Origin: Bacteroidota bacterium
GTDB lineage: Bacteria; Bacteroidota; Bacteroidia; Flavobacteriales_D; Crocinitomicaceae
DNA: 55,203 bases
Assembly: GCA_016866415.1 (NCBI GenBank)
Contig: VGML01000001.1
Coordinates: 1 to 55,203, forward strand
Direction: 5' to 3'
Shown: positions 22,467 through 53,407 of the stretch, piece after piece
How positions within the stretch are numbered: the first letter of the stretch is position 1
How the letters are laid out: each line of letters opens with the position of its first letter
The notes under the pieces: model-generated
Database searches by the model: none
Seen by the model: the letters and a program-made list of their open reading frames with translations, nothing else
What the model was told of the DNA's origin: nothing
Position numbers and translations under genes: made by a program

Positions 22467-25400
22467 GTGTTAATGTCCTTTCGACTAACGTTTTTTCTAC
22501 TTATCCTGTATTTTCTGCCCAAGTTTTTGGTGGCGCAGGAAGGAAGTTGGCGTGAACTGAGAAGACAGGTAGGAACTGAGGTAATTCAACTAGACACATT
22601 GAGTATTTATCCGAATTCATTTGTTGTGAAAAAAGGAGAAATTCCGTTGTCGGAAAAAGAGTATGTTGTTGATTATTTTAAAGGTACTTTTCAACTGAAA
22701 AAACCAATTTCAGACACACTTTATTTTACCTTTCAGGTTTTTCCATTTCAACTCACTCAAAGTGTTCGTAAACGAGAAGAAACAATCATTTACAATCAAG
22801 ATAAAGGTGATAGAGATCTTTTTAAAATTGAAAACAAGGTAACAGTCAACGATCTATTTGGCGGAAGTGAATTAAATAAGAAAGGAAGCATTTCACGCGG
22901 AGTTTCCTTTGGAAACAATCAAGATCTTGGGATTAATTCGTCTTTGAATTTGGAGTTGAACGGTGAACTTACTCCGAATTTGAAGGTTTTGGCCTCTGTT
23001 TCGGATGCTAATCTGCCAATACAACCAGATGGAAACACCAATAAACTACAGGAGTTTGACCAGGTTTTTATCCAGGTATACAACGATCGTTTGAAAGTTG
23101 TTGCTGGAGATTTTTGGATCAGTAAGCCGATGGGTTATTTTTTGACTTATAAAAAACGTGGACAAGGATTAACTTCCGAATTCAAATGGAATACGGCTAA
23201 AAATAACGAGTGGAAAACCCAAATTAGTGGCGCTTTATCCAAAGGAAAGTTCAATCGACAAATCATACAAGGAATTGAGTCAAATCAAGGGCCTTATCGA
23301 CTTCGCGGAGCTGAAAACGAACCATTTATTTTGATTTTGGCAGGAACAGAGCGAATTTACATTGATGGTCGTCTTTTGGAAAGAGGCCAAGAGTTTGATT
23401 ATGTGATTGATTACAATTCTTCTGAGCTTACGTTTACCTCTCGCAACCTCATTACGAAAGACACACGAATCGTCGCAGAATTTCAGTATTCAGATCAAAA
23501 CTATGCAAGATCCCTAGTTCAAAATTCGACCACATACACGGGCAAGAAACTCAATTTTTGGATTAATGCGTATTCTGAACAAGACGCGAAGAATCAATCG
23601 TTACAACAGGAATTGAGTGGATCACAGAAACAATATTTAACTCAAATTGGTGATAGTTTGGAGTTAGCACGAATTAATAGTATCGATTCTGTCGGGTTCA
23701 TTGATAATCAAGTGCTCTACAAAATGATTGATTCGTTGGGATATGATTCCGTTTTGGTTTATAGTATAAACCCTGATTCAGCTAAGTTCAGAGCGTCATT
23801 TCAATTCGTAGGACAAAACAAAGGTGATTACGTGCTCGATAATTTTAACGCTTTTGGTAAGGTTTTTCGATGGGTTGTTCCAATTGGCGGAGTTCCTCAA
23901 GGTGATTATGCGCCAAGTCGACTGATTATCACACCAAAAAGAAAGCAGTTGGTGAGTTCTGGTATTTCAATTCGGTTATCTCCAAAAGTTTCTCTTGAGT
24001 CTGAAATGGCTCTTTCGACGAACGACTTGAACTCCTTTTCAAAACTGAATAGTTCAGATGATCAAGGATATGCCAACCGAACAAAAATCAAATCGGCGCT
24101 TCCTTTTGGAAAAGACACTACTGCGGGTTGGCAACTTGAAAATGCGGCAGAAATAGAACTTCTATCGACTCATTTCAGTCCGATTGAGCAATATCGAAAA
24201 GTGGAATTCGACCGTGATTGGAATACGCGTAACAAAGGATTTGTTGGTTCTCAGCGAGTTGCGAATTTGTCATCTACGTTGAAAAACAAGCGAAATGGAT
24301 TTATGAATTTGGAAGGCCAACATTTCTCAATTGGAAGTGACTATTTCGGGAATCGCTTGGCATCAGAGGGAAATTGGAGGCAGCTAGGTTGGTCTGCAAA
24401 ATGGGATGGTAGTTTTCTTTCTTCTAAAAACAAACAATCGAATGTAAACCCTAGTCAAAATTATTCGGATAATATATTTTTAAGACATCGCGCAGATATT
24501 TCGAGGGATTTTAAATCAATAAAAATCGGATACATTGACGATCACGAGCGAAATGAATTTCGAAGTTCATCCAATAAAATAAGTCCATTGAGCTACCAAT
24601 TTTTCGATTATCAATTTTATCTTTCAAGTGGTGATTCCTCCAAAACGTTTTTCAAGCTTTTTTATCGTGAGCGTTTCGACCAACGAGCAGATAGTTCTCG
24701 CTTAAAGCCTGTAGCTAAAGCAATTACCGCAGGAGGTGAAATCAAACTAGCCGAGTTAAAAAACCAACGATTAAATATCATTGCTGCGTATCGTTCATTG
24801 CGAGTTTCAGATACTATTTTACTTGTTCAAACGCCTGAAAACTCAATGGTTGGAAGAATTGACTACGAGGCAAGGTGGTGGAAAAATGCATTGACCTGGA
24901 ATACGTTTTATGAGATGGGATCGGGCTTGGAACAAAAACGCGAATTTCAATATTTGAAAGTAAACGATGGGCAAGGAATTTATGCCTGGGTTGATTACAA
25001 CGGAGACGAAATCAAAGATCTAAACGAATTTGAAATAGCCCAATTTATAGACCAAGCGAGCTATGTTCGAATTTTTATTCCGAGTAATACCTATATAAAA
25101 ACGTATTCAAATGAGTTCAATCAAAGCATATTTTGGAGACCGGAGCGAATATGGACAAATAAATCAACTTTTTATAAATTCCTTTCCCGCTTTTCCAATC
25201 AGGCACGCGTCCGTATTAATCGAAAAATCAACGCTTTTGATCCAAATGAAGCCTTCAATCCGTTTGCGACAACAATTAATGACCAAAATTTAGTGAGCAC
25301 CAATTCGACGCTGAAAAACTCTCTTTTTTTCAACCGAACATCAAGTATTATTAATGCAGAATACAGTATTCAAGATGTGCGCGCAAAAACCCTACTTGCA

Positions 25401-25946
25401 AGTGGGTTCGATTCAAAGCACAATGCGTCTCAAGAATTTTCTGTGCGATGGAACATTCGGCCAACTTTTTCAATCGAGGTTAAAGGTCTACTTGGAACAA
25501 AGGAATCATTTGCAGATTATACTATCGGAAGAAACTATAAATATGATTACAAGACGGTTCAACCAAGTTTGATTTATCAGCCCTCAACGATTTTTAGAAT
25601 TTCCCTTGATGGAAGAATTTCAGAAAAAGGAAACGCGCAAGAATTGGGAGGAGAGAAGTGTTCGCTTTTAGAGCTGAGAAGTAATTTGAAATACAATCAA
25701 ACGGAAAAAGGCAGTTTTCAGGCAGAATTTAAAACCGTTCGGATGAATTTTGAAGGAAATAATAATTCTGCGATCGGATTTGAATTGTTGGAGTCACTGA
25801 AACCAGGAGTTAACTATACCTGGAACATCAGCTATCAACGAAACGTTTCTAAAAATCTACAACTTTCCATTCAATATTTAGGAAGAAAATCAGAAAATTC
25901 TCGCTTGATTCAAAGCGGAACGATGGAAGTACGTGCGTTTTTCTAA
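22467..25946 (+). CDS. large (1159 aa) predicted outer-membrane beta-barrel-type protein, function unknown
   Basis: Signal peptide, a long run of alternating beta-strand-like sequence rich in Y/F/N/S, and a C-terminal aromatic residue (...MEVRAFF) typical of OM barrels. GTG start in the ORF track. Confidence 0.6.
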   Translation: MLMSFRLTFFLLILYFLPKFLVAQEGSWRELRRQVGTEVIQLDTLSIYPNSFVVKKGEIPLSEKEYVVDYFKGTFQLKKPISDTLYFTFQVFPFQLTQSVRKREETIIYNQDKGDRDLFKIENKVTVNDLFGGSELNKKGSISRGVSFGNNQDLGINSSLNLELNGELTPNLKVLASVSDANLPIQPDGNTNKLQEFDQVFIQVYNDRLKVVAGDFWISKPMGYFLTYKKRGQGLTSEFKWNTAKNNEWKTQISGALSKGKFNRQIIQGIESNQGPYRLRGAENEPFILILAGTERIYIDGRLLERGQEFDYVIDYNSSELTFTSRNLITKDTRIVAEFQYSDQNYARSLVQNSTTYTGKKLNFWINAYSEQDAKNQSLQQELSGSQKQYLTQIGDSLELARINSIDSVGFIDNQVLYKMIDSLGYDSVLVYSINPDSAKFRASFQFVGQNKGDYVLDNFNAFGKVFRWVVPIGGVPQGDYAPSRLIITPKRKQLVSSGISIRLSPKVSLESEMALSTNDLNSFSKLNSSDDQGYANRTKIKSALPFGKDTTAGWQLENAAEIELLSTHFSPIEQYRKVEFDRDWNTRNKGFVGSQRVANLSSTLKNKRNGFMNLEGQHFSIGSDYFGNRLASEGNWRQLGWSAKWDGSFLSSKNKQSNVNPSQNYSDNIFLRHRADISRDFKSIKIGYIDDHERNEFRSSSNKISPLSYQFFDYQFYLSSGDSSKTFFKLFYRERFDQRADSSRLKPVAKAITAGGEIKLAELKNQRLNIIAAYRSLRVSDTILLVQTPENSMVGRIDYEARWWKNALTWNTFYEMGSGLEQKREFQYLKVNDGQGIYAWVDYNGDEIKDLNEFEIAQFIDQASYVRIFIPSNTYIKTYSNEFNQSIFWRPERIWTNKSTFYKFLSRFSNQARVRINRKINAFDPNEAFNPFATTINDQNLVSTNSTLKNSLFFNRTSSIINAEYSIQDVRAKTLLASGFDSKHNASQEFSVRWNIRPTFSIEVKGLLGTKESFADYTIGRNYKYDYKTVQPSLIYQPSTIFRISLDGRISEKGNAQELGGEKCSLLELRSNLKYNQTEKGSFQAEFKTVRMNFEGNNNSAIGFELLESLKPGVNYTWNISYQRNVSKNLQLSIQYLGRKSENSRLIQSGTMEVRAFF

Positions 25947-38771: not shown

Positions 38772-39024
38772 GTATTGTTGGTCTATTGTAATTAAAATTA
38801 TTGTTTCTTTCAAAATAGATTCAATTTGTTATTGATTCAAATAACCTTTTTCACTAACCTAAATAGGCGGAAATTCAATGGGAAAATGACTTATTTGATG
38901 ATGACCAACAAATTAATTTCAGAGATTAAATGTGTGATGATTACCAGCCTATAACAGCGAATAACCGCAACAAAAACTGCGATTGTCTGCAATCCGTTAA
39001 ACAATAATGCGGAAAACAGTAGCT

Positions 39025-39058
39025 AAAATAAAAATAAAAACGTGCCTAATTAGGCACG
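39025..39058 (-). terminator. intrinsic terminator closing the RT/LRR/MoxR/VWA operon
   Basis: The 18-nt perfect palindrome cgtgcctaattaggcacg (39041..39058) is followed, on the minus strand, by TTTTTATTTTTATTTT. It lies about 180 nt downstream of the VWA gene stop. Confidence 0.65.
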
Positions 39059-39240
39059 CTATAGGTTGCTGAGTTATTACTTTATAAGCTCTGCTTAATT
39101 TAAATTCAAATTCGAGGCTAAAGTAACCCATAAAAATAGCTACTTAACTTTATTCGAACATTAATCAAGATAGGCGAATCGCCTACCAAAATGCTAAAAA
39201 CCTTCTCGCAACCACAACAAAGTTAAAAAAACAATGGGGA

Positions 39241-40410
39241 TTAATCAATAAGATGTAAAACTCGGCCCTTTAAATGGTCTGTGTTATCATTATTTCCATA
39301 AACACACCAAAGAACCGGGACTTTGCATTTAATCGTGTTTGGGCCATAACCATCTGTGAAATAAATTAATCCTGTATAGCCAGAGCGTTGGTTAATCCAC
39401 GAGATTACAGGATCAAAGTTTGTGCCCCCTCCGCCTTTGAGAGTTGGTGGCGTTTTGAATTTTCTAAACTCATAAGTCATTTGTATTTGAGCGTCGCACT
39501 CAATAATTGTAATTGTTGTACCGGTTCTACTAATCTGTTGAATTTCATGCCAAAACAGACTTAAGGTTTCTTTGTCTATTGAGCCAGATGTGTCAATTGC
39601 AACAACTATTCGTTTCAATTTCTTTATTTTGACACCCGGATTCCCTTCGAATCGTTTGCTTTCCTTTCTTCTTGTTGACCTCAAAACTGTTCGGCCACAC
39701 GATGAGTTGAATAACCGCAATATTTGCTTCCAAGAAACTTTCGATGGGGAAGTTGTTGACTCTATAGCTCGTTGAATCTCTTGAGGGAGATTACCATAAT
39801 CCATAGATTTTGCTTTCGCATCCTTTATAACTCGATTAATAACTCTGTCGCTTGGTCTTTCTCCGTTCGAACCCCAAAACTCATGAATGCCTCTTGTTGT
39901 TGCATTTTTTTTACAGTCGTTCAGCGCACTAAAACTTATTGGATGAAGCTCTTTCGCGGAGGGATCTGTTAGCTTTAAAAGCGCATTGTAATAATACTCC
40001 ATTGTTTGTCCTTCCAATAAGTTTAAATCTGGAAACATTGTCAATAGTATTGCCCCTTTAGGAAGAGGCCAAGGGTCAATGTATTGATTTACAACCAAAT
40101 CCGCTGCGACATTTTCAAGAAATGGGTCTTTTTTTTGACCGCGAAACAAATGTTTGAATAAGATATGTAAAACTTCATGCTTTAAAACGCCTATTCGTTC
40201 ATTTTCGGATAGTTTATGAATGAAAAAATCAGGATTTATGCTTAAAAACAACCGTTCTTCCTTAAATGAAACCGCCAATGTTTCTATTTGTGGCACAAAA
40301 ATACGAGTCAGACTCGATATTACATGCGCATAAAACGATTCGTTTCTAAGGAGTTTTATTACCGAAGAAGAAACAATGGAATCTAAATTCTTTATTTGAT
40401 CTGCAGACAT
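39241..40410 (-). CDS. VWA-domain protein with an N-terminal zincin-like (HExxH) putative metallopeptidase domain (DUF2201-type architecture)
   Basis: HEVLH at aa 78-82 (nt 40165..40179) inside LKHEVLHILFKH. MIDAS motif DTSGS at aa 273-277 (VVAIDTSGSID). The C-terminal LIYFTDGYG is typical of the VWA-like DUF2201 domain. The start overlaps the MoxR stop by 1 nt (TAATG). Confidence 0.85.
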   Translation of the reverse strand: MSADQIKNLDSIVSSSVIKLLRNESFYAHVISSLTRIFVPQIETLAVSFKEERLFLSINPDFFIHKLSENERIGVLKHEVLHILFKHLFRGQKKDPFLENVAADLVVNQYIDPWPLPKGAILLTMFPDLNLLEGQTMEYYYNALLKLTDPSAKELHPISFSALNDCKKNATTRGIHEFWGSNGERPSDRVINRVIKDAKAKSMDYGNLPQEIQRAIESTTSPSKVSWKQILRLFNSSCGRTVLRSTRRKESKRFEGNPGVKIKKLKRIVVAIDTSGSIDKETLSLFWHEIQQISRTGTTITIIECDAQIQMTYEFRKFKTPPTLKGGGGTNFDPVISWINQRSGYTGLIYFTDGYGPNTIKCKVPVLWCVYGNNDNTDHLKGRVLHLID

Positions 40411-41552
40411 TAAATCATCTTCACAAATTGAGCTAAAACTTCTTGATTGGCAATGACTTTATTGATTGTTACCATAGATGGGGAACCGTGTAGCCTTGCT
40501 TTTATCAAATCCTGGTGAAATGCATACCTTAAATCGCCTGGAACGATGGTTGATTTTAATAAACTTATTAACGCTTGTTCGCAATTATCCAATGGTATAT
40601 AATTGGATTTAAGCTTAATAACTATTCGAGCCAATAAAGTATTTATTAAATCTAGGCGAACGCCTTGTTCAGAAAAAGTTAATCGTTTTATCCAATCTTC
40701 AATTGTTGCGTTATCAGCTTCCAGGAATTCATCTGGAGAAGGGATTTGATTTAATGTATCCTCAACGAAATTGATAAACGATTCTGCGGACTCTAAATCC
40801 AAGCAACCTTTAGCCAATACTTGAACCAAACTTTTTTCTTGAATCAAATCTGGGATAAGCTTAATTTGACTGAAGAACTGAACAAGAGTTCTTGGTGTCG
40901 TTCTTCGCATTGTAACCATTTCGGGATAGGTTAGCACAAAGTTAACTCCACGCTCATCAATTCCTGCTTCTAAAGCCCATTCTGCCCATGCTTTTTCATC
41001 AAATTTTAATGTAATGTGGATCATTCTAGTAAGCATCGCCTCATCCATTGGGGTAACGGAATAATCCCCAGAGTCAGGATTCGCTGTTACAACAATTTGC
41101 CAATTTTTTGGTAAAGACCACGAAAACATCTCAAAGTTTTGTAAAAGCTGCATCGTTCCCCGCAAAATTCGATCATCTGCACGATTAATGTCATCGAGGA
41201 GTAAAATTCCTGGTCCTTCATCTGTTGGAACCCACTCTGGAGGAAGGTAAACAGTTCTTTCATCTCCAAAAATGGTTGGGTCTGGATCAATTTTGAAAGG
41301 AAGTCCGTGCAAATCACCCATCTCCTCGAACTGGGCTGGAGCGCAATATGCTACCTTCCATTTTTTACTTCTAGCCAAGTCCATGGCTATTTCCGTTTTA
41401 CCCAAACCATGTGTTCCCCAGATACATATTGGGGTAGGGCGTCTGCCTGATTGAGCTTCAAAAACTAAATTGGACTCAAGAATTTTCTCTAATAATTGAA
41501 ATAACTCCTTTCCATTGACTTCTGCCCCGTAGCAATCTTGATTTTGACTCAT
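40410..41552 (-). CDS. MoxR-type AAA+ ATPase (AAA_5 / CbbQ-NorQ-like)
   Basis: Walker A GTHGLGKTE (aa 46-54), Walker B ILLLDDINRA (aa 116-124), and a sensor region VVTANP. The ATG overlaps the stop of the LRR gene as ATGA. Confidence 0.85.
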   Translation of the reverse strand: MSQNQDCYGAEVNGKELFQLLEKILESNLVFEAQSGRRPTPICIWGTHGLGKTEIAMDLARSKKWKVAYCAPAQFEEMGDLHGLPFKIDPDPTIFGDERTVYLPPEWVPTDEGPGILLLDDINRADDRILRGTMQLLQNFEMFSWSLPKNWQIVVTANPDSGDYSVTPMDEAMLTRMIHITLKFDEKAWAEWALEAGIDERGVNFVLTYPEMVTMRRTTPRTLVQFFSQIKLIPDLIQEKSLVQVLAKGCLDLESAESFINFVEDTLNQIPSPDEFLEADNATIEDWIKRLTFSEQGVRLDLINTLLARIVIKLKSNYIPLDNCEQALISLLKSTIVPGDLRYAFHQDLIKARLHGSPSMVTINKVIANQEVLAQFVKMI

Positions 41553-42790
41553 AAATCCAAATAACTTGTATCTAAAGATAGTAAATTATGCTTTTCCTCT
41601 ATACTAAAGAAATTTCCTCTAAGCCTTATGGTGGTTCTAGATAAATCAGAGGTTTTATAAAAACTTAAAAACTCGGTTAGGCAATTATCTTCTAAATCTA
41701 GATAAACCAAATTGGTCAAGTTTTTCATAGATGCGGGTAGTTTGCGTAGTTGGTTTTTTCTTGAATCAAGACGTGATATTCCGCGCCAAAACAATTCGCC
41801 CTCTGGCAGGATCTCAAGTTTATTATGAGAACACAATAATTCACTTAATGAGTTTAAATTCATGAATTCTTTTGGAATGGATGAAATATGGTTGTGACTA
41901 ACATCTAAATATTCTAAATTAAGACACATAATATTCATCTCTAGAGGAAAAGTCGATATTTCATTGTCCCTTAAATTCAATCTTTTTAAATTTCTTGGTA
42001 ATTCCGAGAGATCAAAACTTGTAAAAAAACAACTTGACAGGTCTAGTTTTTCCAAATTATCCATATCTGAAAGCCCTTTTATTTCATTCAATTTATTCAT
42101 CGAAAAATCAAGCTCTTGAATGCTGTTTGGTAAAAAGCCTAGGCTGATGCTTGTAAGTTTTAGGCTGTCATTGAAAACAATGTTCGTAAGTTTAGAGTTG
42201 TTTTTCGTTAATTTCGGTAGTTGACTCAAACTGCACAATCTAAACTCCACCGAACTTAAAGCAGTTGCCAAGCTTAAATCTTTTGGAAGTATTTCTCCAT
42301 TAACGCTAATAAATGTCAGCTTTTCAATTGATTTGGACGAATAAATGGAATTCAGCTGATAATCAGAATCTAAATCATAAAATGAACATGATTTTATTTG
42401 ATTTGCAATTAATGGGAAATCTAAATCAAAGGTGTTTCTCAATGCTGATTCACAATTAATAATTAAGTTTTCTATACATAAAGCATTAACTAGTTGACTA
42501 ACAACACCATTGGGGATTTCAGAAATTTTAGCGTCCAAAAGCAGTGTTTTTGGTGCCGGTAAAAAGTGGTTTTCCAAACGAAAAAGGCCCTTTCTTATCA
42601 TTGAAGGGTGACTTCCATCAACACTAAACGCAATTAAAAACAAACAATCCAAATCTGATAGTTCAATTCGATTTGACCAAATTTCATCTACAATTTCATT
42701 CGGAAATATGGATATAAAAAACCCATTTTGATCCATGTTTTTAACATCATGGAGAATGTTCAATAGCTGTTCTTTTGAAAACTGATCCAT
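41549..42790 (-). CDS. leucine-rich repeat protein
   Basis: The C-terminal ~250 aa are consecutive 22-24-aa LxxLxLxxNxLxxLP repeats (e.g. LEKLDLSSCFFTSFDLSELPRNLKRLNLRDNEISTFP, LEYLDVSHNHISSIPKEFMNLNSLSELLCSHNKLEILP, LVYLDLEDNCLTEF). The N-terminal ~150 aa are unassigned. The start is 6 nt after the RT gene stop. Confidence 0.8.
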   Translation of the reverse strand: MDQFSKEQLLNILHDVKNMDQNGFFISIFPNEIVDEIWSNRIELSDLDCLFLIAFSVDGSHPSMIRKGLFRLENHFLPAPKTLLLDAKISEIPNGVVSQLVNALCIENLIINCESALRNTFDLDFPLIANQIKSCSFYDLDSDYQLNSIYSSKSIEKLTFISVNGEILPKDLSLATALSSVEFRLCSLSQLPKLTKNNSKLTNIVFNDSLKLTSISLGFLPNSIQELDFSMNKLNEIKGLSDMDNLEKLDLSSCFFTSFDLSELPRNLKRLNLRDNEISTFPLEMNIMCLNLEYLDVSHNHISSIPKEFMNLNSLSELLCSHNKLEILPEGELFWRGISRLDSRKNQLRKLPASMKNLTNLVYLDLEDNCLTEFLSFYKTSDLSRTTIRLRGNFFSIEEKHNLLSLDTSYLDL

Positions 42791-42796
42791 TCGTAT

Positions 42797-45700
42797 TTAT
42801 TTGGGCGTTTTTATGGGTATTTCTAAAGTTCTGCCTTGTTGAATTAACTGCTGTTGGAGGGCTAAAATTTCCTTTTCGTTTATATAAAAATAAGGTCTCA
42901 GATCTATTATTTCTATTTTAGTTAATAGATTTAATAAACTCGTTATTTCTTTTAAACTAAGATATCCGGTTTCCCTTGCATAAATTATCTTTAAATTAGG
43001 GAAAATAGGATTTAATAAGGTTGGGGTGTTATAACTGAAGAAATTTCGAGTATTATCCACAAATAAGTTCTCCAAAGAAGGTATGTTTGGTAGTTTACAA
43101 TTCACCGAAGTATAAGATAAATTCAACGTTTTTAGGTTTTTAAATGATTCTAAAGCTGTCAAATCGTGATGATAACCACTAAACGATAAATCCAAATACC
43201 TGCAATTTTCTTTGTTCTGTTTAGCTAATTCAAGCGAATTGTAATAACCATTACTGTTAAATATACCTTGCTTGGTCGCTTCACTTAAAAATGTTTTTCT
43301 AATTATATTTGGCATACCTGCCCTCGTTGTGCTTTCTTGATAAAACACCTCTGATTCAAAACTAGAAATCACATGAGATTTCTCAAGCGCGGTTTCTTCG
43401 CAAGTAAAATAGCGATACTCGCCATCAGATTGAGAAATATGGGTTCCTAATTTATGTATAACAAAATGAAATTCAGCTGGCGTTAGAAAGGATAATAAAT
43501 AATCGATAAGTTGATTGAAAATTGAATCTGATTTTACTTGTTTGGTTGCTAGTTTTTTAGGTAAAAAGACAAGTGTTCGGGCGCTAATTTTACAAGCTTT
43601 TAATAAAAAAGCTGGGTTTTCCTTTAGTCGTTTTGAAGCAAAAACCATTGAATAAGGGTTCCTTTTTATTGCAATTAACATAACTTCCTCATCATTCTTT
43701 AATTTTGAGGGAAGGTGCTTAGCTGCAATTTCACCTGACGCCAGCATTGTCATCACTTTATTTCTTGAGTTATCACTGGCGGAGTAGAGCTTATGTTTTG
43801 CAAACACCCCGTGTTTTATAATATATGGGCGATTTAATGGGCGATCGTCTGAAGGTGGAATTGTTGGTGGTTTTGATTCTTTCTTGTGAGAAAAAATATC
43901 CAAATCTGATAGTAGATTTTCCTTTCCTAGTCGCGTCTTTTTTTCTGAATGAATTTTTTGATTAAAGTTGACTTCTGTCCAATCCATTATAGGGCCTTTT
44001 TCGCGCTTGAAGCGTTCAGGGTTAAATAAAAGCTTGTCTTTTTTATAAAAACTTTCCAAGGGGACGCTGAGTTTGTGTACATCAAACTGAAGAGCGAACC
44101 CAAGAAGTGGAAAGCCAGAAACTCGCTTAGAGTAAATCAAATTCGTGGTTAATTTAGATGCGTGTGGCTTTGAATTGTACCTATTTATAGCATATAATTT
44201 TGGGAAATGCTCCTCTATTTGTCCTTTTTTAAGTTCTTTTTCGTTTTCATTAGAAAGCACTAAAATTAACTCATCAATAAAAATTTGGTTTTTTGGGATT
44301 ATTGTTTGTATGTTCTGATGTCTCTCCTCAATCGAATCAAAAGGATATGTTACGTGTAAATACGTCTGTTCATTTCCTATTCGTTTTTCCCCCAACACTT
44401 TAACAAGAATGTTTGGTCGATGGAATTCAACAGATGTTGCAGGAAGGCTGGTAAAAGATGTGCCTGGATGAAGTAAATGATAAAGATCTGGTTTTACATG
44501 AAAATCACCGATAAATTTGATGTTTGGTATCCAAGAAAAATCAATAATCAAACTTTTTAAATGAATGTTTTTAAGGTCACTTGCATTGAAAACATATTGT
44601 TTCAAAAATATATTTTCTTGATGGTTGTTGTCCCGTTCCAAAGAATTTAAATGCTCGTTTAAAGGCGTGATTGAGCCAAATGACATTTTCAGCCGATGGA
44701 TAAGTTGATTGATTTGTTCATGATTCGTCTCAAACTCGATAAATAAATGAATCGCTTCTAGCTTACTGAGTCGATTAAATAGTTCCTTTGAATCTATTTT
44801 ATTAGTCCCTATCTCAAATCTAACTTTCAAGAATTCAACGGCGTTTTTGGAATCAATTAACTCGTTTAATTCGTGGTCACTACTCACCGTACGCCAGCTT
44901 TCTCCTCCTAAAGCGGATAAATAAATTTCACCCAAAGATTTTTGGCGTTCAAAAATCAACTGATCTGCCGTAAGTTCATGCGATGACTGGAGTAACCTTT
45001 TCCATGGAATATCTAAAAGCTTTAAGTCTTTATTTTCTTCTAAACGAATATGTTTTACTCCTTTTGGTAGGTTATTTAATTTTATTGATTCTAACTTATT
45101 ATTTCTTAAATCAATTCGCTTTACAGGGGCGATTTCGGTTAAATTAACGTGTTTTAAATTGTTGTTGTATAATAGAATTGATGAAGCATTAACGTTTTTT
45201 AATGAAAAAGAAAATTCTTCGAAATTCAAATTAGATAAATCAACGGAGAATTTTGACAATTGAATACTATCCCAAAGAGTTTTTGAAATCATTGGTTTTT
45301 TTGTCATTTCCTCAGACATTACGAGTCTAATAGAACAAGCGCCAACTATTGCCTGAAAATCCTCGTTTAAGGGCGGATTCAAATAATAATCTATGGAGCG
45401 ATTATTAGTTAATTCAAACTTTTGTTTTTTGTTAACTGATAAAGAAAAAGTTTTGCTGGAAATATAACAGGCGGTGTTATGGTTTATTTTCTTTTTGATT
45501 CTTTGATCAAAACTCAAAAAACAAATTGCCTTTCTGGCTATTCTACCTTTGGTTGAACGTTCTTTCGATAAGTGAGCTAAATCAGACGTCCAATACAAAC
45601 CTACTCGATTGTAATAACGATAACCATTTTCATCAGCCAAACCATTGAAATGAGGATCAAACGGATATCTTATTCCCAGAACCCTTCTGTCTTCAAAGTT

Positions 45701-47050
45701 CGTTTCTTTTATAAAGTTATTAAACTCATCCATGGTTGGTAATCGCCAGCCCGGGTTGTTTTTCAATGCTAATTCAATTGACTCCTCTGTAAAAAGTTGA
45801 ACGGACTTATTTTTTCTATCTATCGATGGATAATCTGTTTGGGTATCATCATCCGAAATTCGCCAAAAAAGACCTGCAATAAAAACCGAATTATTCTTGA
45901 TTTTAAAGTCTTTGTTCTCTAGCTCGCTTATATAATTTGTAGCATCCCCAACGGTTTTTCCTAATGCAAGAAACCTTTTTATTATAGATAATTCCCCTTT
46001 ATATCTTTTAAATTCAGGGTCAACTTTATTTACTTGAAGCACCCAATTAACTTTACCGGCTAATTCAAGCAAAAAGCTGTTTATATTGCTATGAGTTCTT
46101 GAAACGTGGTCCAATCCAAATTTTTTAAGATAATACATTTGCATTCGAAGACCTCGTTTAAAAGCCCTTCCCGCCGAACGTTTTTCGTTTACAACTATTC
46201 CCGTTACCGTTTGTCTTTTGTGTCTTTTGAGAACTTTTGTTTTTGATTTCTTTAGTTTCAACGACTTTTTATAAAGTTGGTGTTGTACAAATTTTATAAC
46301 TTGTTTAGAAACAAGTTCTGAATTTGAACCTGAAACGGTAATGTCATCCGAATAACGAGAATAACATAAGCTTTTATTCACACAAAATTCCAACATTTTT
46401 TTATCAAAACTAACGAGGTAAGAATTAGCAATATATCCGCTTGTTGGACTTCCTTGTGGTAAAAAACCATTAAGTGTTGTAGATGAAAGCACTTTTTTAG
46501 CTAATCCACTTATAATCAGCTGTTTCTTGTCTTCTGTTTCGTCTTTTTCAATAATCCCCAAATGAATCAAATATTTTACCTTGAGATTAAGAATATCAAA
46601 CCAGAATAATTCTATTTTATTTTTTGGAATACTATTAAAAAAATTAGATATATCGAGCTTAACTACGACATCTTTCCCGATATGGAAATTAGCATTTTTA
46701 ACAACACTAGATCCTTTTAAATAAGCTGTTGAAGATCTTGTTGGAAGGTATTTGTATTTAATATTTCGAGATAATACTGGATAATCACGGTGTTTTTTTA
46801 GGGTGTACAACAAATTCAAAAGTTGCTTTTGAATTTCCTTTAAAAGCGGTTTAGGCTCATAAAGTATTCTTTTGGTGCCGTCATGCTTCGGTATTACATG
46901 TTTGATATAGCATTCTTCGCTTAATTCTTCTGAAAGTTCTAATTCATGAAGTAGTTTTAAGGCATTGAATTTTAACCGAGTTACATTGAAATCTGTTTTT
47001 AAAAAATCATTTACACTAATTTGAACTATTTGATTATTTTGATCAATCAT
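42797..47050 (-). CDS. 1417-aa multidomain protein: N-terminal retron-like reverse transcriptase fused to a FISUMP/lectin-like domain, LRR blocks, a DUF4116-like repeat and unassigned regions
   Basis: RT motifs: IPKHDGTKRILYEP (motifs 1/2), NANFH (retron-type NAxxH, aa 119-123), VVKLDISNFFNSI (A), LPQGSPTSGYIANSYL (B), YSRYSDDITVSG (C; YSDD at nt 46343..46354), KLKKSKTKVL (D/6) and QTVTGIVVNEK (VTG, aa 282-284). FISUMP-like region aa ~385-580: FWRISDDD, NPGWRLPTMDEFNNF, GLYWTSD, ACSIRLV. LRR block aa ~595-685. DUF4116-like region aa ~1095-1165: EEVMLIAIKRNPYSMVFASKRLKENPAFLLKACK. LRR block aa ~1280-1385. Confidence 0.85.
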   Translation of the reverse strand: MIDQNNQIVQISVNDFLKTDFNVTRLKFNALKLLHELELSEELSEECYIKHVIPKHDGTKRILYEPKPLLKEIQKQLLNLLYTLKKHRDYPVLSRNIKYKYLPTRSSTAYLKGSSVVKNANFHIGKDVVVKLDISNFFNSIPKNKIELFWFDILNLKVKYLIHLGIIEKDETEDKKQLIISGLAKKVLSSTTLNGFLPQGSPTSGYIANSYLVSFDKKMLEFCVNKSLCYSRYSDDITVSGSNSELVSKQVIKFVQHQLYKKSLKLKKSKTKVLKRHKRQTVTGIVVNEKRSAGRAFKRGLRMQMYYLKKFGLDHVSRTHSNINSFLLELAGKVNWVLQVNKVDPEFKRYKGELSIIKRFLALGKTVGDATNYISELENKDFKIKNNSVFIAGLFWRISDDDTQTDYPSIDRKNKSVQLFTEESIELALKNNPGWRLPTMDEFNNFIKETNFEDRRVLGIRYPFDPHFNGLADENGYRYYNRVGLYWTSDLAHLSKERSTKGRIARKAICFLSFDQRIKKKINHNTACYISSKTFSLSVNKKQKFELTNNRSIDYYLNPPLNEDFQAIVGACSIRLVMSEEMTKKPMISKTLWDSIQLSKFSVDLSNLNFEEFSFSLKNVNASSILLYNNNLKHVNLTEIAPVKRIDLRNNKLESIKLNNLPKGVKHIRLEENKDLKLLDIPWKRLLQSSHELTADQLIFERQKSLGEIYLSALGGESWRTVSSDHELNELIDSKNAVEFLKVRFEIGTNKIDSKELFNRLSKLEAIHLFIEFETNHEQINQLIHRLKMSFGSITPLNEHLNSLERDNNHQENIFLKQYVFNASDLKNIHLKSLIIDFSWIPNIKFIGDFHVKPDLYHLLHPGTSFTSLPATSVEFHRPNILVKVLGEKRIGNEQTYLHVTYPFDSIEERHQNIQTIIPKNQIFIDELILVLSNENEKELKKGQIEEHFPKLYAINRYNSKPHASKLTTNLIYSKRVSGFPLLGFALQFDVHKLSVPLESFYKKDKLLFNPERFKREKGPIMDWTEVNFNQKIHSEKKTRLGKENLLSDLDIFSHKKESKPPTIPPSDDRPLNRPYIIKHGVFAKHKLYSASDNSRNKVMTMLASGEIAAKHLPSKLKNDEEVMLIAIKRNPYSMVFASKRLKENPAFLLKACKISARTLVFLPKKLATKQVKSDSIFNQLIDYLLSFLTPAEFHFVIHKLGTHISQSDGEYRYFTCEETALEKSHVISSFESEVFYQESTTRAGMPNIIRKTFLSEATKQGIFNSNGYYNSLELAKQNKENCRYLDLSFSGYHHDLTALESFKNLKTLNLSYTSVNCKLPNIPSLENLFVDNTRNFFSYNTPTLLNPIFPNLKIIYARETGYLSLKEITSLLNLLTKIEIIDLRPYFYINEKEILALQQQLIQQGRTLEIPIKTPK

Positions 47051-47124
47051 TTTACTTTCTTCTCAATACTAAAATAATAAATAAACAATGAAAGAAAACG
47101 CATCAAGTAGATTGTAAATACAAA

Positions 47125-47139
47125 ATAGACGGCGTCTAT
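47125..47139. promoter_or_regulatory. candidate operator: perfect inverted repeat ATAGACG-G-CGTCTAT upstream of the RT gene
   Basis: 7+1+7 palindrome about 75-90 nt upstream of the RT ATG (47050). A third copy of the half-site TAGACGG sits at 47194..47200. No protein-binding evidence. Confidence 0.3.
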
Positions 47140-47269
47140 AATATTGAAATAAAATAATAAAAAACTATAAAAAACAAGCCTTAATTGCGGGTTTAGACGG
47201 GTTTTTTATTTATTTCCTAATGTTTACATTAAACATAACCCTATCGCTTATTAAATCGCTTCTATTTGA

Positions 47270-50050: not shown

Positions 50051-53000
50051 CTAATTTCCATTGAAATACTGATTTGCTTTATCCTTATAATACTTCTTGT
50101 ATGTTGGATCTGCAGACTTCAATAACTCAATTTGTTTTAACTTTTGTTTGTTATACTCATCAAATCGAATTTTGTTACCATAATTATCATCTTTTCCTGA
50201 TTTAGACTCACGTTTTTCTTCAAACCCTCTTTCCATAAGTGCTTTTTCACTTTCTAGTAAACGCGTCATAATATCTCGCTGACGATTAATCATTTCTTTG
50301 TTAATATTTCGATTAATCAAATCCTTTTCCTGCTGCTCCAATTCCTTAATCAAAAGATTAAGTTTGTTTCCTAAGCCTTGTCCTTCTTTGTTCATTTCAT
50401 TTCTTAGCTGCTCCAGCTTTTGACGAATTGCTGTTTGTTCAGCTGCCATCTTCGCAATTTCTTTATTTCCTAAGCCCAACATATTTTGACCGCTATTACT
50501 TGGTTTACTACCTGGTTTATCACCCGGCTTGTCACCTGCCTTTTGTCCACCTGGATTGGGTCCTTTCTGCATTTGCTCCAACTGTTTTTTCAACATTTCC
50601 TTCATGTCTCCTGTTGACATTGACGAACCAGGTTTCGGACGACCTTTACCAGGATTATTGCAACTTCCGTTTCCTGGTGTCTGTGATTGCATCTGAGCTT
50701 GCATGGACTGCAACGCTTCGTTCAATAATAAAGCTAGGTTATTATAAGATGTCATTACCAATTGCTGATGCTTTCCTAAATCCTTCTTCCGACGGTCTTC
50801 GATGTCTTCGATTGAAGCCTGATGATTGGTTTCTATCGCATTCAACTCTTTGTCTATAAAACTCGCTATTTTCGGCTGTCTTTTAGCTAAAGCCAACAAA
50901 CTATCTTTTACAATCTTTGTATCATCTATAATTCTTCGTTGTCTACGTCCATATTTAAGATATGCGGGGTCAGAAGTGCTAACACGACCCATTTTATTCA
51001 TCAAATCTTCTTGATCGAAACTAAGCGTCATTAAACTCTCTAAAATATTTCGCAAGGCATCCATGTCTTCCTCCTGCTGCTTTTGATTCGCTTTTTGTTG
51101 TTGCTGATCTAATTGTTGGGCTAGTTGTTCCATTTGATCACTGGCTTCCTTTTGTGATTCTCCAGCTTTCTTGCTCTTTCCTTTTTCAAGACTTTCTTTA
51201 GATTCGTTTAATTCATTAGAAATCTTTTCTTCTTGTTCTTTCGTGTCTCCTAAATTCATAGGATTATCCAAATCCTTATTAAGTTCATTCAGCTTATTTA
51301 AGTCGTCTTTTAATTGATCAAACTTCTTATTGATTTCTTCTTGCTTTTCGACTGACTTTTCTTCGCTTATTTTTTTATTCTCTATTTCTTTTTTTAATTC
51401 TTCTTGTTCTTTAGCTAGTTCTTTTAATTGTTTCTCTATGTCATCAATCTTTTCATTTACTTGAAGTCGCTTTAACATTTCCAAACTACGATCCAACTGC
51501 TTTTTCATGTCTTCAGTAGACTGATCCAGTTGATCCAGTTTATCTTTGATATTTTCCTTATCGTTCTTCTCTAGTAACTTCTCTAAATCTTCTAACAACT
51601 TTTTAAGCTCGTCATCCATCAACTGATCTAAGAGTTTTTCGATCATTTCCTGTTTCTCTAAAAGCTCTTTATCTATTTCAGACAATTGGTTTTTCTCCTC
51701 CGTACTTTGATTAATGTCATTTTTGATCTGCTCCAAAGACTCAATTAAGTTCTTCTGTTCATCTTGAAGTTGATTCACTTGATTCATTTTATTCCAATCA
51801 GATGACTTGGAATTTAACGCTTCTTTTTTGAGTTTTTCCACTCTTCTTTGGAATTCATTCGTTTTTTCTAATAAATCCGTCAAACCCTCTTTGGTTTTCT
51901 CTTGATCTTCGTTTCTCTTTTCAATCAATTCATCGAGCGTTGGAAGTTTGTATGTGTATGATTGACTGCGTGAAGACTTACTACCATTTACACCATCGTT
52001 ATCAGAAACAACAAAATAATATTCAATTCGATCTTTCAATTGTAATTTCTCACGACGGAAATCAACTGCAAATTCATACGATATTTGTGTTCCTGAAACA
52101 GGTCTAACCATTAGTTTTTGATCCCTAGAACTTCCATTTTCACTTATAATCTTATAAACGAAATACAAACTTTTCAATCCATAATCATCTCCGATCTGTC
52201 CTTTAAAATAACGAACTCCGTCTGCAACACTGTCCTTGAATTCTTCAACATCAATGGTGGGAGGAGCATCTTTAATGACTGAAATAACATAATTCACGCT
52301 GTCTATTTTATTCTTGAAAGCGTTATACAATTTGAATTTCAGCTTTGATTCATTGTTCACTTTCTTATTCAGTTTAAACCCTAATTCTGTTTGAATTTGT
52401 TTATTTCCGTTCCAATTAACTTCTACTTTTTTAGTATTCTTAGTTAAAACACTCCATTCTATTTGAGTTCCTTCTGGGATAGTTAAATCACCAGCGTTTT
52501 GAATAACCTCCGGCGTTTTTCCTAAATAACTTGGGTATGCCAATTTTGCTTCTAATTTTCCTAATATTGATTTACCGATGACATTTAATTGATATTTATC
52601 ACTCGTGTAATCGTTTGCAGTGAAATAAAAAAACGAAGATTCTTTTGGCTTTCGAATGATTCCTTTGAAAAAGTTCTTTGAAACACGATCCATTAAAAAC
52701 TTGCCGTTTTCACTAATCATGTATACATTTTCAGGGAGTGAAGATCCTTTAAGAATCAAACTTATCTCAGCATCTTGTCCTTCTTCAACGGTTAATTTAT
52801 TCTCATTGAGATAAAATTGAAAAGGAGCGTATTCTTCATTGTAATTCACCACACGCTCTGTTCCTTGGGTAATTAAACTTGGAACGAAAACAGCCAACAA
52901 AACAAAAACAGTAAAAATGGGTAAAAGGTAACGTAGGTATTTTTTATTTTGTCTGAAATCGATTGCGGATGTAAACGGAATTACATTCAATTGCGCGGAC

Positions 53001-53407
53001 TTCTGAAGAACACTAGCTCGAATTAATTCTAAATTTCCTTCATTTTGATCCAATGCATCATTTAGTTGAAGGGTGTTTTTTAGTCGATCTGATATCTCAG
53101 GAAAAAAAGAGCCTATAATTTCTGAAGCTTGGTAGCGATTAATTCGTTTTCCAAATGAAACAAGTTTAGAAAGTGGAATGAATATATAACGAACTAATAA
53201 TAAAACATTTACAGCTATAAAACCAAAAAATAAAAAAGCTCGCGTTCCAGAGCTAAAACGTCCAACATACTCCAACGTAGTTGTTAATAAAAAGGAAAAC
53301 AGAAAAAACAAAGTGAATAAAAGAATACCCTTTATCATTTCGTTTTTATAGAACTTCCGAATGAAAGCGTCTATTTGGTCCAACAAATGTTCAAACGAAC
53401 TGGTCAT
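50051..53407 (-). CDS. large membrane-anchored coiled-coil protein (DUF4175-like)
   Basis: N-terminal TM helices, a beta-rich middle region, then about 400 aa of E/K/Q/L-rich heptad-like sequence. There is also a low-complexity GQKAGDKPGDKPGSKP tract. The family name is from memory of similar ~1100-aa Bacteroidota proteins. Confidence 0.65.
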   Translation of the reverse strand: MTSSFEHLLDQIDAFIRKFYKNEMIKGILLFTLFFLFSFLLTTTLEYVGRFSSGTRAFLFFGFIAVNVLLLVRYIFIPLSKLVSFGKRINRYQASEIIGSFFPEISDRLKNTLQLNDALDQNEGNLELIRASVLQKSAQLNVIPFTSAIDFRQNKKYLRYLLPIFTVFVLLAVFVPSLITQGTERVVNYNEEYAPFQFYLNENKLTVEEGQDAEISLILKGSSLPENVYMISENGKFLMDRVSKNFFKGIIRKPKESSFFYFTANDYTSDKYQLNVIGKSILGKLEAKLAYPSYLGKTPEVIQNAGDLTIPEGTQIEWSVLTKNTKKVEVNWNGNKQIQTELGFKLNKKVNNESKLKFKLYNAFKNKIDSVNYVISVIKDAPPTIDVEEFKDSVADGVRYFKGQIGDDYGLKSLYFVYKIISENGSSRDQKLMVRPVSGTQISYEFAVDFRREKLQLKDRIEYYFVVSDNDGVNGSKSSRSQSYTYKLPTLDELIEKRNEDQEKTKEGLTDLLEKTNEFQRRVEKLKKEALNSKSSDWNKMNQVNQLQDEQKNLIESLEQIKNDINQSTEEKNQLSEIDKELLEKQEMIEKLLDQLMDDELKKLLEDLEKLLEKNDKENIKDKLDQLDQSTEDMKKQLDRSLEMLKRLQVNEKIDDIEKQLKELAKEQEELKKEIENKKISEEKSVEKQEEINKKFDQLKDDLNKLNELNKDLDNPMNLGDTKEQEEKISNELNESKESLEKGKSKKAGESQKEASDQMEQLAQQLDQQQQKANQKQQEEDMDALRNILESLMTLSFDQEDLMNKMGRVSTSDPAYLKYGRRQRRIIDDTKIVKDSLLALAKRQPKIASFIDKELNAIETNHQASIEDIEDRRKKDLGKHQQLVMTSYNNLALLLNEALQSMQAQMQSQTPGNGSCNNPGKGRPKPGSSMSTGDMKEMLKKQLEQMQKGPNPGGQKAGDKPGDKPGSKPSNSGQNMLGLGNKEIAKMAAEQTAIRQKLEQLRNEMNKEGQGLGNKLNLLIKELEQQEKDLINRNINKEMINRQRDIMTRLLESEKALMERGFEEKRESKSGKDDNYGNKIRFDEYNKQKLKQIELLKSADPTYKKYYKDKANQYFNGN

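Follow-up and report, generated by a model that had tools for sequence, protein, structure and literature searches.

The 55,203-nucleotide (nt) stretch of the Bacteroidota contig VGML01000001.1 that was analyzed here (hereafter, the window, by whose numbering positions are given) carries an operon of four genes, which encode a reverse transcriptase (RT) with a very large C-terminal extension, a leucine-rich repeat (LRR) protein, a MoxR-type AAA+ ATPase, and a protein that combines a zincin-like and a VWA domain, followed by a structured RNA element; operon and element are both on the minus strand. The explanation that we favor overall, and consider probable, is that this unit is an uncatalogued retron that was grafted onto a MoxR/VWA-zincin/LRR module. 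A preliminary description of the same DNA had proposed an RT system of an undescribed class; our analyses instead point to a new retron type with a cognate msr-msd-like RNA, which that description had overlooked. The four genes, located between mnmG/ybeY and polA in a housekeeping region, are as follows.

42797..47050, minus strand: gene 1, open reading frame (ORF) of 1417 amino acids (aa), retron RT with a C-terminal region of ~1,060 aa
41549..42790, minus strand: gene 2, ORF of 413 aa, LRR protein, cytoplasmic
40410..41552, minus strand: gene 3, ORF of 380 aa, MoxR-type AAA+ ATPase
39241..40410, minus strand: gene 4, ORF of 389 aa, zincin-like plus VWA protein

Gene 1 encodes a predicted retron reverse transcriptase

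Judged by profile matches, by the solved structures that its sequence resembles, and by its motifs, the RT of gene 1 is a retron RT. Pfam places RVT_1 at residues 53-285 (E = 2.9e-19); the best PADLOC profiles are retron RT_III-A (2e-71, 239 bits) and Ec107-like (2e-65, 219 bits), the best 25 PADLOC matches are all retron RT profiles, and the top NCBIfam models are retron St85, Ec67, and TIR-RT. When residues 1-355 were compared with the sequences of solved structures in the PDB, 14/14 matches were retron RTs. The RT core of retron-like flavor that had been noted in the preliminary description, with its YSDD motif, is thus borne out by profiles and PDB matches alike. Retron RTs are marked by an NAxxH motif between RT2 and RT3 (region X) and by a VTG triplet in RT7 (region Y), the latter having been tied to msr recognition by Mestre et al. 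(PMC7736814), and both are found in gene 1.

45986..47050, minus strand: RT domain (residues 1-355), with NAxxH (NANFH, 119-123), YSDD (233-236), and VTG (282-284)

YSDD and the region Y triplet at 282-284 are invariant across 15 loci, and region X reads NAxFH in 12 of the 13 loci aligned there, with locus L003 given as NARFH.

Two other origins of the RT need to be weighed against these data. Large multi-domain RT fusions are typical of the UG/Abi/DRT groups, and a partial Drt2 match in NCBIfam would fit a non-retron defense RT of this kind fused to accessory domains; this match, however, reaches 61 bits against a cut-off of 390 and covers the catalytic core only, retron profiles score 3-4 times higher, and NAxxH, VTG, and a cognate retron-like RNA are present, so that such an origin is very improbable. 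A group II intron or intron remnant, which a weak match to group_II_RT_mat (NCBIfam TIGR04416, 51.6 bits) might suggest, has a negligible probability: the cut-off of that model is 300 bits, Rfam detects no intron RNA domains in the window, and the RT is stably linked to three genes at 32-39% identity, unlike the RTs of autonomous introns. The profile score and the lack of intron RNA effectively refute this explanation.

A conserved structured RNA gene follows gene 4

The 180 nt that separate the stop codon of gene 4 from the terminator represent a conserved structured RNA gene rather than a spacer, with the following parts.

39218..39225, minus strand: candidate Bacteroidota -7 promoter box TAACTTTG (TAnnTTTG)
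39064..39213, minus strand: retron msr-msd-like non-coding RNA (a1 to a2), ~150 nt; covariance model 121.7 bits, E 2.4e-25
39205..39213, minus strand: a1 inverted repeat GGTTGCGAG, pairs with a2
39194, minus strand: candidate branching G in invariant UUUUAGC, from closing-stem pairing
39169..39187, minus strand: P1 hairpin GGTAGGCG-AUU-CGCCTATC, candidate msr stem-loop, from pairing and compensatory changes
39081..39165, minus strand: candidate msd (template) region with inferred boundaries, from alignment and folds; its parts are a variable hairpin, the box GAAUUUGAAUUUAA (39113-39100), a short hairpin P3 (39096-39086), and UAUAAAG
39064..39073, minus strand: a2 inverted repeat CTC-A-GCAACC, pairs with a1
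39029..39060, minus strand: intrinsic terminator (hairpin and T run), end of the RNA gene and of the operon

Across loci, the general 5' to 3' layout consists of the TAnnTTTG box, a1, a spacer of 3-6 nt, UUUUUA-G-C, P1 with a CGAKUCG apex, and UUG, and then of the variable hairpin, the box GAAUUAGAAUUGAA, an optional P3, UUCnAAAG-UAAnAA, a2, and the terminator. In 14 of the 16 distinct RNAs, the TAnnTTTG box, a candidate promoter element that resembles the Bacteroidota -7 consensus, lies 29-34 nt ahead of the putative branching G. The terminator stem (39060..39039) has 9 bp, 5 of them G-C pairs, and is followed by a T run, and most other loci have an equivalent hairpin and T run after the RNA. 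The strong terminator that had been described earlier as closing the operon is present as a hairpin and T run, but it closes the RNA gene, downstream of gene 4. The RNA gene has its own terminator, and probably its own promoter as well.

In an intergenic comparison, the DNA 3' of gene 4 was conserved even where the proteins are only 32-39% identical, and the DNA upstream of the RT (47051-47269) was conserved between close relatives only. A scan of about 170 loci with the simple pattern TTTTAGC...CGAnTCG found the element in 18, always on the operon strand and directly past gene 4, and yielded 16 distinct sequences (for metagenome scanning, the DNA pattern form of the element is TTTTAGCNTNNNGNNNNNCGANTCG). 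A covariance model, which was built without the a1/a2 pairs because their register varies among sequences, was applied to the 18 complete four-gene loci and scored 97-150 bits in 16 of them and 39-45 bits in L004 and L162, which are the most divergent; the element is present in all 18, always at this position and strand. The model gave no other strong match in 1.58 Mb of related loci, none upstream of the RT (47051-47269), and none in loci with RT-less modules, which are described below. As an aside, the RNA of locus L163 (9861-9960; 96.8 bits) lacks the variable hairpin and keeps all other elements, and represents a natural minimal variant.

Pairing within the element was supported by several comparisons. 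While MAFFT and RNAalifold on the raw alignment retrieved the P1 hairpin only, the a1/a2 repeats and the closing stem were tested by per-sequence duplex folding and anchored counts. Among the 16 RNAs, the duplex of a1 with its cognate a2 had a mean energy of -16.1 kcal/mol, versus -8.3 +/- 3.4 kcal/mol for non-cognate partners from different lineages, and 10/16 cognate pairs were better than every non-cognate partner. In the closing stem, the 7 nt that precede the G of UUAGC were matched to the 7 nt that come behind the invariant G of AAAG, and 97/112 positions are paired, versus 39-66 when the register was slid, which indicates that G39194 and the second invariant G face each other at the inner end of the stem; two facing Gs likewise appear in the consensus retron RNA, according to the legend of Fig. 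2B in PMC7736814. For the three helices that could be placed in columns of a 14-sequence alignment, 91% of cells were paired versus 37-51% when slid, and the covariation score of 0.273 (0.138 in shuffles) was reached by 0/500 shuffles. P1, which is 99% paired and shows compensatory changes at 3-4 of its 8 pairs, is strongly supported as a hairpin and is the candidate msr stem-loop, and the msd part consists of a variable hairpin, conserved boxes, and an optional hairpin rather than of a single long stem. On these grounds, G39194 is a candidate for the branching G of an msr-msd-like RNA.

The closest stand-alone retron RTs, which are 39-44% identical to gene 1 over the RT domain, are found in four Crocinitomicaceae/Flavobacteriales loci (L012, L014, L015, and L087), in all of which the covariance model has weak matches (20-24 bits) directly upstream of the RT and on the same strand. 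The upstream regions of L012, L014, and L087 contain textbook retron RNAs, in which the G of UUAGC comes 2 nt past an a1 of 17-22 nt and is succeeded by a hairpin with a CGAUUCG apex and, just ahead of the RT start, by a matching a2, with a1/a2 duplexes of -26 to -28 kcal/mol; L015 is near-identical in sequence, but its automatic a1/a2 search anchored on a different UUAGC. These sister retrons thus have UUAGC, the CGAUUCG hairpin, and the following UUG in common with the RNA of the window, and differ from it in that their RNA, which has a1/a2 repeats of 17-18 nt, lies directly upstream of a 368-369-aa RT (a length given for L014 and L015) and that no MoxR, VWA, or LRR gene is present. Given these shared parts, we favor reading the 3' element of the window as an RNA of this kind that has moved to the operon's far end; an RNA upstream of the RT is the typical retron layout rather than a mechanistic requirement.

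An alternative that bears directly on this assignment is that the 3' element is a structured 3' untranslated region (UTR) or a small regulatory RNA and that the RT works without multicopy single-stranded DNA (msDNA), like some defense RTs. Retrons do not usually carry their RNA past the last gene, a search of Rfam gave no significant match, and the msd part, which has no long uniform hairpin, even loses its variable hairpin in L163. What speaks against a UTR or regulatory RNA is the joint occurrence of covarying terminal repeats, a UUAGC G opposite a second invariant G, and an msr-like hairpin, as well as the UUAGC and CGAUUCG hairpin that also occur in the RNA ahead of the RT in the closest canonical retrons, the absence of the element from RT-less modules, and the retention of the VTG region by the RT. 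We thus regard this alternative as improbable and retain the assignment as a retron RNA.

Two observations on these RNAs and sister retrons are recorded here separately. The DUF3800-I RNA motif is linked to DUF3800 genes; it was the best permissive Rfam match in the RNA region (39031-39147, minus strand), at a non-significant 19.8 bits (E = 1, gathering threshold 44.2). DUF3800 is listed as a partner of retron type VII (PMC7736814). In addition, a divergently transcribed protein of ~148 aa with a C-terminal cold-shock domain adjoins three of the sister retrons, in each case beside the RNA and RT (e.g., L014:5831-7104).

L012:1245-1691, minus strand: cold-shock-domain gene
L014:5098-5547, minus strand: cold-shock-domain gene
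L015:3254-3700, minus strand: cold-shock-domain gene

Retron type V is the type associated with cold-shock proteins; the cold-shock-linked RTs found here score best on type III-A profiles, not on those of type V.

The four-gene unit is conserved with unrelated flanks

Homologues of the full-length 1417-aa protein fall into 21 clusters (P0001-P0021, clustered at 90% identity) that are 32-98% identical to it, and their named sources are all Bacteroidota assemblies (Crocinitomicaceae, Flavobacteriales, and Cryomorphaceae). On every contig that is long enough, the RT fusion, LRR, AAA_5, and DUF2201 genes occur in the same order, which is retained at 32-39% RT identity, and the flanking genes are unrelated between contigs; the same genes in the same order with unrelated flanks at this level of divergence indicate that the unit is not a chance arrangement. 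The view that four packed minus-strand genes form one unit, for which neighborhood conservation had been named as a test, hence agrees both with this co-conservation and with the ORFs and junctions in the window, which are a 6-nt gap, a 4-nt overlap, and a 1-nt overlap. Between the window copy and other loci, identity is highest for the ATPase (65-92%) and the zincin-VWA protein (49-82%), and is 32-67% for the RT fusion and 28-69% for the LRR protein. A metagenome scan added two further full-length loci among the matches listed, which were mostly ordinary retron RTs. In three loci (L163, L165, and L166), the RT starts ~20 nt after rplL.

Some loci depart from this organization. In one subclade, a conserved fifth gene of 330-408 aa, which carries an HExxH motif (VLHELVHALD), has no Pfam match, and is absent from the window, abuts or overlaps the RT start at the following sites.

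L001:6946-8004: fifth gene
L005:3184-4263: fifth gene
L009:4896-5894: fifth gene
L010:4897-5910: fifth gene
L160:4779-5990: fifth gene
L161:4768-5994: fifth gene

The zincin-VWA gene is split into 214 aa and 91 aa at L001:14878-15880 (and in the same way in L086), where a frameshift, decay, or an assembly error is possible. Upstream of the retron operon, L003 (5167-7740) and L006 (2052-4625) carry a pair of genes for an unrelated VWA_2 protein and an AAA protein (Mg-chelatase/AAA_5-like), with an extra minus-strand ORF between this pair and the RT in L006.

The region fused to the reverse transcriptase

Residues 356-1417 of gene 1 show conservation over their entire length and appear, from profile and model comparisons, to form a scaffold composed of a lectin-like region, an LRR block, an orphan domain of ~400 aa, two DUF4116 repeats, and a second LRR block. 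The parts that could be located are as follows.

45572..45874, minus strand: weak Lcl_C (DUF1566, C-type-lectin-like) region, GWRLPT...YWTS invariant
43736..44983, minus strand: orphan central domain (residues 690-1105), AlphaFold 2 (AF2) model
43406..43693, minus strand: two DUF4116 repeats (Pfam, 2.5e-17 and 1.5e-19)
42851..43204, minus strand: C-terminal LRR-like block, weak LRR_4 and profile similarity

The orphan domain has a confident AF2 fold (pLDDT 73.8, pTM 0.77, core pLDDT > 90), for which no match was found in Pfam or, with Foldseek, in the PDB (best E 0.96) or BFVD. An exhaustive HMMER search of 1.84 billion representatives found it in just 10 proteins, 5 of which are full-length RT fusions of the homologue set; the other 5 are shorter and are read as fragments of the RT-fusion family. 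It had been suggested earlier that the effector may reside in ~400 aa of the RT protein; this region is the orphan domain, and it has no detectable enzyme fold. LRR arrays had likewise been described in both gene 1 and gene 2, and those of gene 2 are clear (LRR_8, 1.9e-14; LRR_4, 5.9e-14, in Pfam), but the LRRs inside gene 1 are weak (LRR_4 E = 2.2; profile positions ~1283-1400 resemble an LRR protein at E = 3e-4). Among the Pfam families that had been expected from the sequence, RVT_1, LRR, DUF4116, AAA_5, and DUF2201_N/DUF2201 were found and Fib_succ_major was not; the lectin-like/DUF1566 module is weak, with an Lcl_C match below the Pfam cut-off (E = 0.005).

Since C-type-lectin-like folds are the usual targets of diversity-generating retroelements (DGRs; PMC8632793), the weak Lcl_C-like region raises the alternative that it is a variable target and that the 3' element is a template repeat. 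Within 38900-47300, however, no repeat exceeds 33 nt (70-90% identity), and the RNA shares none with the lectin-like region; the RT profile matches are retrons; and GWRLPT and YWTS (invariant columns W435, R436, L437, P438, Y486, W487, and T488) are invariant rather than hypervariable. With no template/variable repeat pair, a DGR is effectively refuted and is given next to no probability. Clustering of the RT with group II introns or DGRs had been named earlier as a refuting outcome; the profile matches point to neither, and we continue to read gene 1 as a retron RT.

The LRR protein, the ATPase, and the zincin-VWA protein

Gene 2, the LRR protein, was found in every complete locus. Gene 3 matches AAA_5 (Pfam, E = 6.6e-06) and has a Walker A motif (GTHGLGKT, 46-53) and a Walker B motif (LLLDD, 117-121) that are invariant across 15 loci; Walker B is DD instead of the usual DE in all members, RT-less orthologues (L168 and L172) included, so that the catalytic glutamate is replaced family-wide. 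Gene 4 matches DUF2201_N (1.3e-13) and DUF2201 (1.3e-18) in Pfam, and its zincin motif HEVLH (78-82) and metal ion-dependent adhesion site (MIDAS) DTSGS (273-277) are invariant in the same number of loci and are also present in RT-less relatives. The MoxR plus VWA/zincin pair of the preliminary description is thereby corroborated. The AF2 model of gene 4 has a pLDDT of 82.7, and structure comparison identified its C-terminal half as a VWA fold at probability 1.0. Neither the ATPase nor the zincin-VWA protein matched any PDB sequence, not even when a profile of 26 sequences served as the query, and genes 1-4 contain no further Pfam family at E <= 0.01.

Related modules occur without a reverse transcriptase

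Homologues of the zincin-VWA protein number at least 3,618 at E <= 1e-10, far above the count of RT fusions. Three RT-less contexts, all from Bacteroidota, were inspected. ATPase orthologues at 50% identity are encoded on plasmids of Chondrinema litorale and Fulvitalea axinellae without an RT, in the gene order zincin-VWA, ATPase, and an LRR protein of ~930 aa, plus a 475-aa LRR protein in Chondrinema; in marine Flavobacteriaceae, the order is ATPase, an 893-aa LRR protein, and zincin-VWA; and in another context a zincin-VWA gene is followed by one for a 285-aa LRR protein. Profile searches support orthology of both the ATPase (425-485 bits) and the zincin-VWA protein (283-367 bits) in RT-less modules. 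These AAA_5/LRR/DUF2201 modules have the same Walker A, DD Walker B, HExxH, and MIDAS motifs as the window proteins and are adjoined by 1-2 LRR proteins, and they differ in having no RT, no RNA, and another gene order; their LRR proteins show repeat-level similarity only and do not contain the orphan central domain. Homology of the fused region of gene 1 to the large LRR proteins of these modules was considered and rejected, since similarity is at the level of repeats only.

The neighborhoods of two RT-less contexts were also noted. The triad of marine Flavobacteriaceae (L172-L174:140-5128, minus strand) lies back-to-back with a gene for an AAA_16 (STAND-like) protein of 1,651-1,662 aa, which is possibly a hint of a defense neighborhood. 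The short pair of zincin-VWA and 285-aa LRR protein (L175-L177, e.g., L175:2276-3573) is followed by a Tc-R-P/PTP-NADK-like gene and a NADAR gene, with additional PD-(D/E)XK and UvrD-type helicase genes in L175.

That the MoxR/VWA-zincin/LRR part is far more widespread without an RT argues that it is the autonomous core and that the RT is an add-on. Retrons are modular and have co-opted stand-alone defense modules, such as Septu in Ec78, according to PMC7736814 and PMC12819146. The most economical reading of these sequence comparisons is that the ATPase/LRR/zincin-VWA module existed first and later acquired a retron RT together with its RNA. One may further propose, as a tentative possibility, that the RT-less module is a bacterial immune machine in which LRR proteins act as pattern receptors and a MoxR-VWA switch licenses a metallopeptidase, with the retron bolted on as a second sensor, based on nucleic acid, whose RT is covalently linked to the receptor scaffold and whose template RNA has a promoter of its own where the operon ends.

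Proposed mechanism and possible functions

A mechanism can be outlined on the model of characterized retrons, as summarized in the introduction of PMC7736814. With the 2'-OH of G39194 as its primer, the RT would reverse-transcribe approximately 39165..39081 and so produce msDNA. Anchored by the fused scaffold and by the LRR partner, RT and msDNA together would keep the MoxR/VWA-zincin machine inactive until a phage interferes with the msDNA or the repeat surfaces bind phage proteins. Either event would set off ATP-driven remodeling through the VWA MIDAS, and this remodeling would activate the zincin peptidase, the only candidate effector, so that the infected cell stops growing. By analogy, we give an anti-phage role of the unit slightly better than even chances and consider it rather doubtful that the zincin is an effector released by MoxR-VWA. 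The order of events that had been proposed earlier, in which LRR and lectin-like modules sense, MoxR-VWA licenses, and the RT provides the output, would run against the usual retron logic, in which guarding or sensing falls to the RT and its DNA and the partner acts as effector; PMC12548924 describes an RT/RNA/DNA complex that sequesters a toxic effector until a phage trigger.

A number of observations weigh against the favored interpretation. The RNA gene is at the 3' end, downstream of gene 4 and ~8 kb from the RT start, which is an unusual layout for a retron; it resembles the RNA of the sister retrons weakly (E 1e-3 to 8e-3 on 40 kb), and Rfam gave no match at gathering thresholds in the whole window and only noise at permissive thresholds in 38950-39300. 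With regard to the proteins, the DD Walker B may mean that ATP turnover is slow, switch-like, or purely regulatory, structure comparison gave no match that confirms the zincin half of gene 4 as a peptidase, and no classical toxin, nuclease, TIR, or pore domain was found in the four genes, the last result being in keeping with the earlier statement that no nuclease, TIR, or pore-forming effector is present. The locus in the window lies amid housekeeping genes (mnmG, ybeY, and polA), outside any defense island, and everything presented here was deduced from the sequences of uncultured-genome assemblies. MoxR-VWA pairs, finally, are mostly known as maturation chaperones, and given this precedent a non-immune role is a real possibility.

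In its specific form, this last alternative holds that the unit is a retron by descent that has become a protein-remodeling or maturation machine, regulated or scaffolded by the RT and a small DNA. It would fit the housekeeping surroundings in the window and the position directly after rplL in L163, L165, and L166, the lack of PADLOC matches to genes 2-4 and of a toxin domain, and an ATPase whose strong conservation (65-92%) is unlike that of fast-evolving immune sensors. It fits poorly, however, with a patchy distribution in which flanking genes differ per genome, with the extreme rarity of the family, which comprises about 21 clusters at 90% identity and accounts for 10 of 1.84 billion representatives, with the fast divergence of the RT fusion and the LRR protein (28-40% identity), and with the location of some RT-less relatives beside the 1,651-aa AAA_16 STAND-like gene or on plasmids; moreover, every retron type that is characterized in the portions of the literature drawn on here is linked to phage defense. 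We consider such a non-immune machine unlikely and prefer a retron grafted onto the ATPase/LRR/zincin-VWA module, with a possible defensive role.

If this interpretation is correct, the window would add a fourteenth kind of retron partner set and the largest RT fusion among retrons. It would also mean that a template RNA gene can move to the far end of an operon, where searches adjacent to the RT would miss it, and relocated RNA genes of this kind may account for some of the retron clades whose RNA has so far escaped detection. The widespread and unstudied ATPase/LRR/zincin-VWA module of Bacteroidota would become a candidate immune system, for which the grafted retron is circumstantial evidence. 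The compact RNA and its 16 natural variants provide a ready set for msDNA tests and for Bacteroidota retron editing tools.

Other features of the window

Three further features of the window lie outside the operon.

22467..25946, plus strand: ORF of 1,159 aa, no Pfam match at E <= 1e-5
50051..53407, minus strand: DUF4175 protein of 1,118 aa, within a strongly composition-skewed stretch
49-53 kb: AT skew to -0.32, GC skew -0.25

Comparison with known systems

The set of partners found here is absent from the partners and fused domains of the 13 retron types in Table 1 of PMC7736814, and the terms LRR, leucine, VWA, MoxR, and metallopeptidase do not appear in Mestre et al. 2020 (PMC7736814). The earlier statement that no catalogued system matches holds up accordingly, and genes 2-4 also matched no PADLOC model (PADLOC v2), including the retron accessory models. 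Literature searches on retrons with MoxR/vWA, on RTs with DUF2201, and on retrons with DUF4116 found no description of this system; these searches were incomplete and could have missed a recent description.

Among retrons, the window RT scores best on the type III-A and Ec107-like profiles, and NAxxH, YSDD, VTG, a1/a2, and the context of the branching G are alike. Type III-A is defined by a PRTase-like gene and a winged-helix DNA-binding partner (PMC7736814); neither was found in genes 1-4 by Pfam or PADLOC, and the flanks are mnmG and polA. Unlike type III-A, moreover, the window RT carries a fusion of ~1,060 aa and its RNA gene comes last in the operon, after all four protein genes. Type I-A (Ec78/Ec83) follows the same logic as that proposed here, since there, too, a retron RT and RNA have been combined with a module that is otherwise found independently, according to PMC12819146; type I-A co-opted an ABC-type ATPase and an HNH nuclease, whereas the window has an AAA+ MoxR, a zincin-VWA protein, and LRR proteins, which are unrelated to these, and, unlike in type I-A, its RT is physically fused to a large scaffold. 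In type XI, where the RT is C-terminally fused to a trypsin-like protease (PMC7736814), the candidate effector is likewise a peptidase; in the window, by contrast, the candidate is a zincin on a separate VWA protein that is accompanied by an ATPase, and the fused region contains no protease.

Outside the retrons, the MoxR-vWA conflict systems combine a MoxR AAA+ ATPase with a vWA protein that has an intact MIDAS, as does the window, with a peptidase sometimes attached to the vWA protein, and a thresholding role has been proposed for the couple (Kaur et al. 2020, PMC7159879). VMAP, the third component of the ternary MoxR-vWA systems, was not detected in genes 1-4 (Pfam, E <= 0.01). Kaur et al. 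2020 (PMC7159879) has no entry for DUF2201 and none that joins the couple with LRR proteins or a retron, and the RTs in that study belong to diversity-generating elements. At the level of sequence, most of what marks a retron appears to be present at the locus in the window, apart from an RNA upstream of the RT and with an msd part that does not form one long stem, and the locus is very probably a retron of a type outside the current catalogue, with a new partner set.

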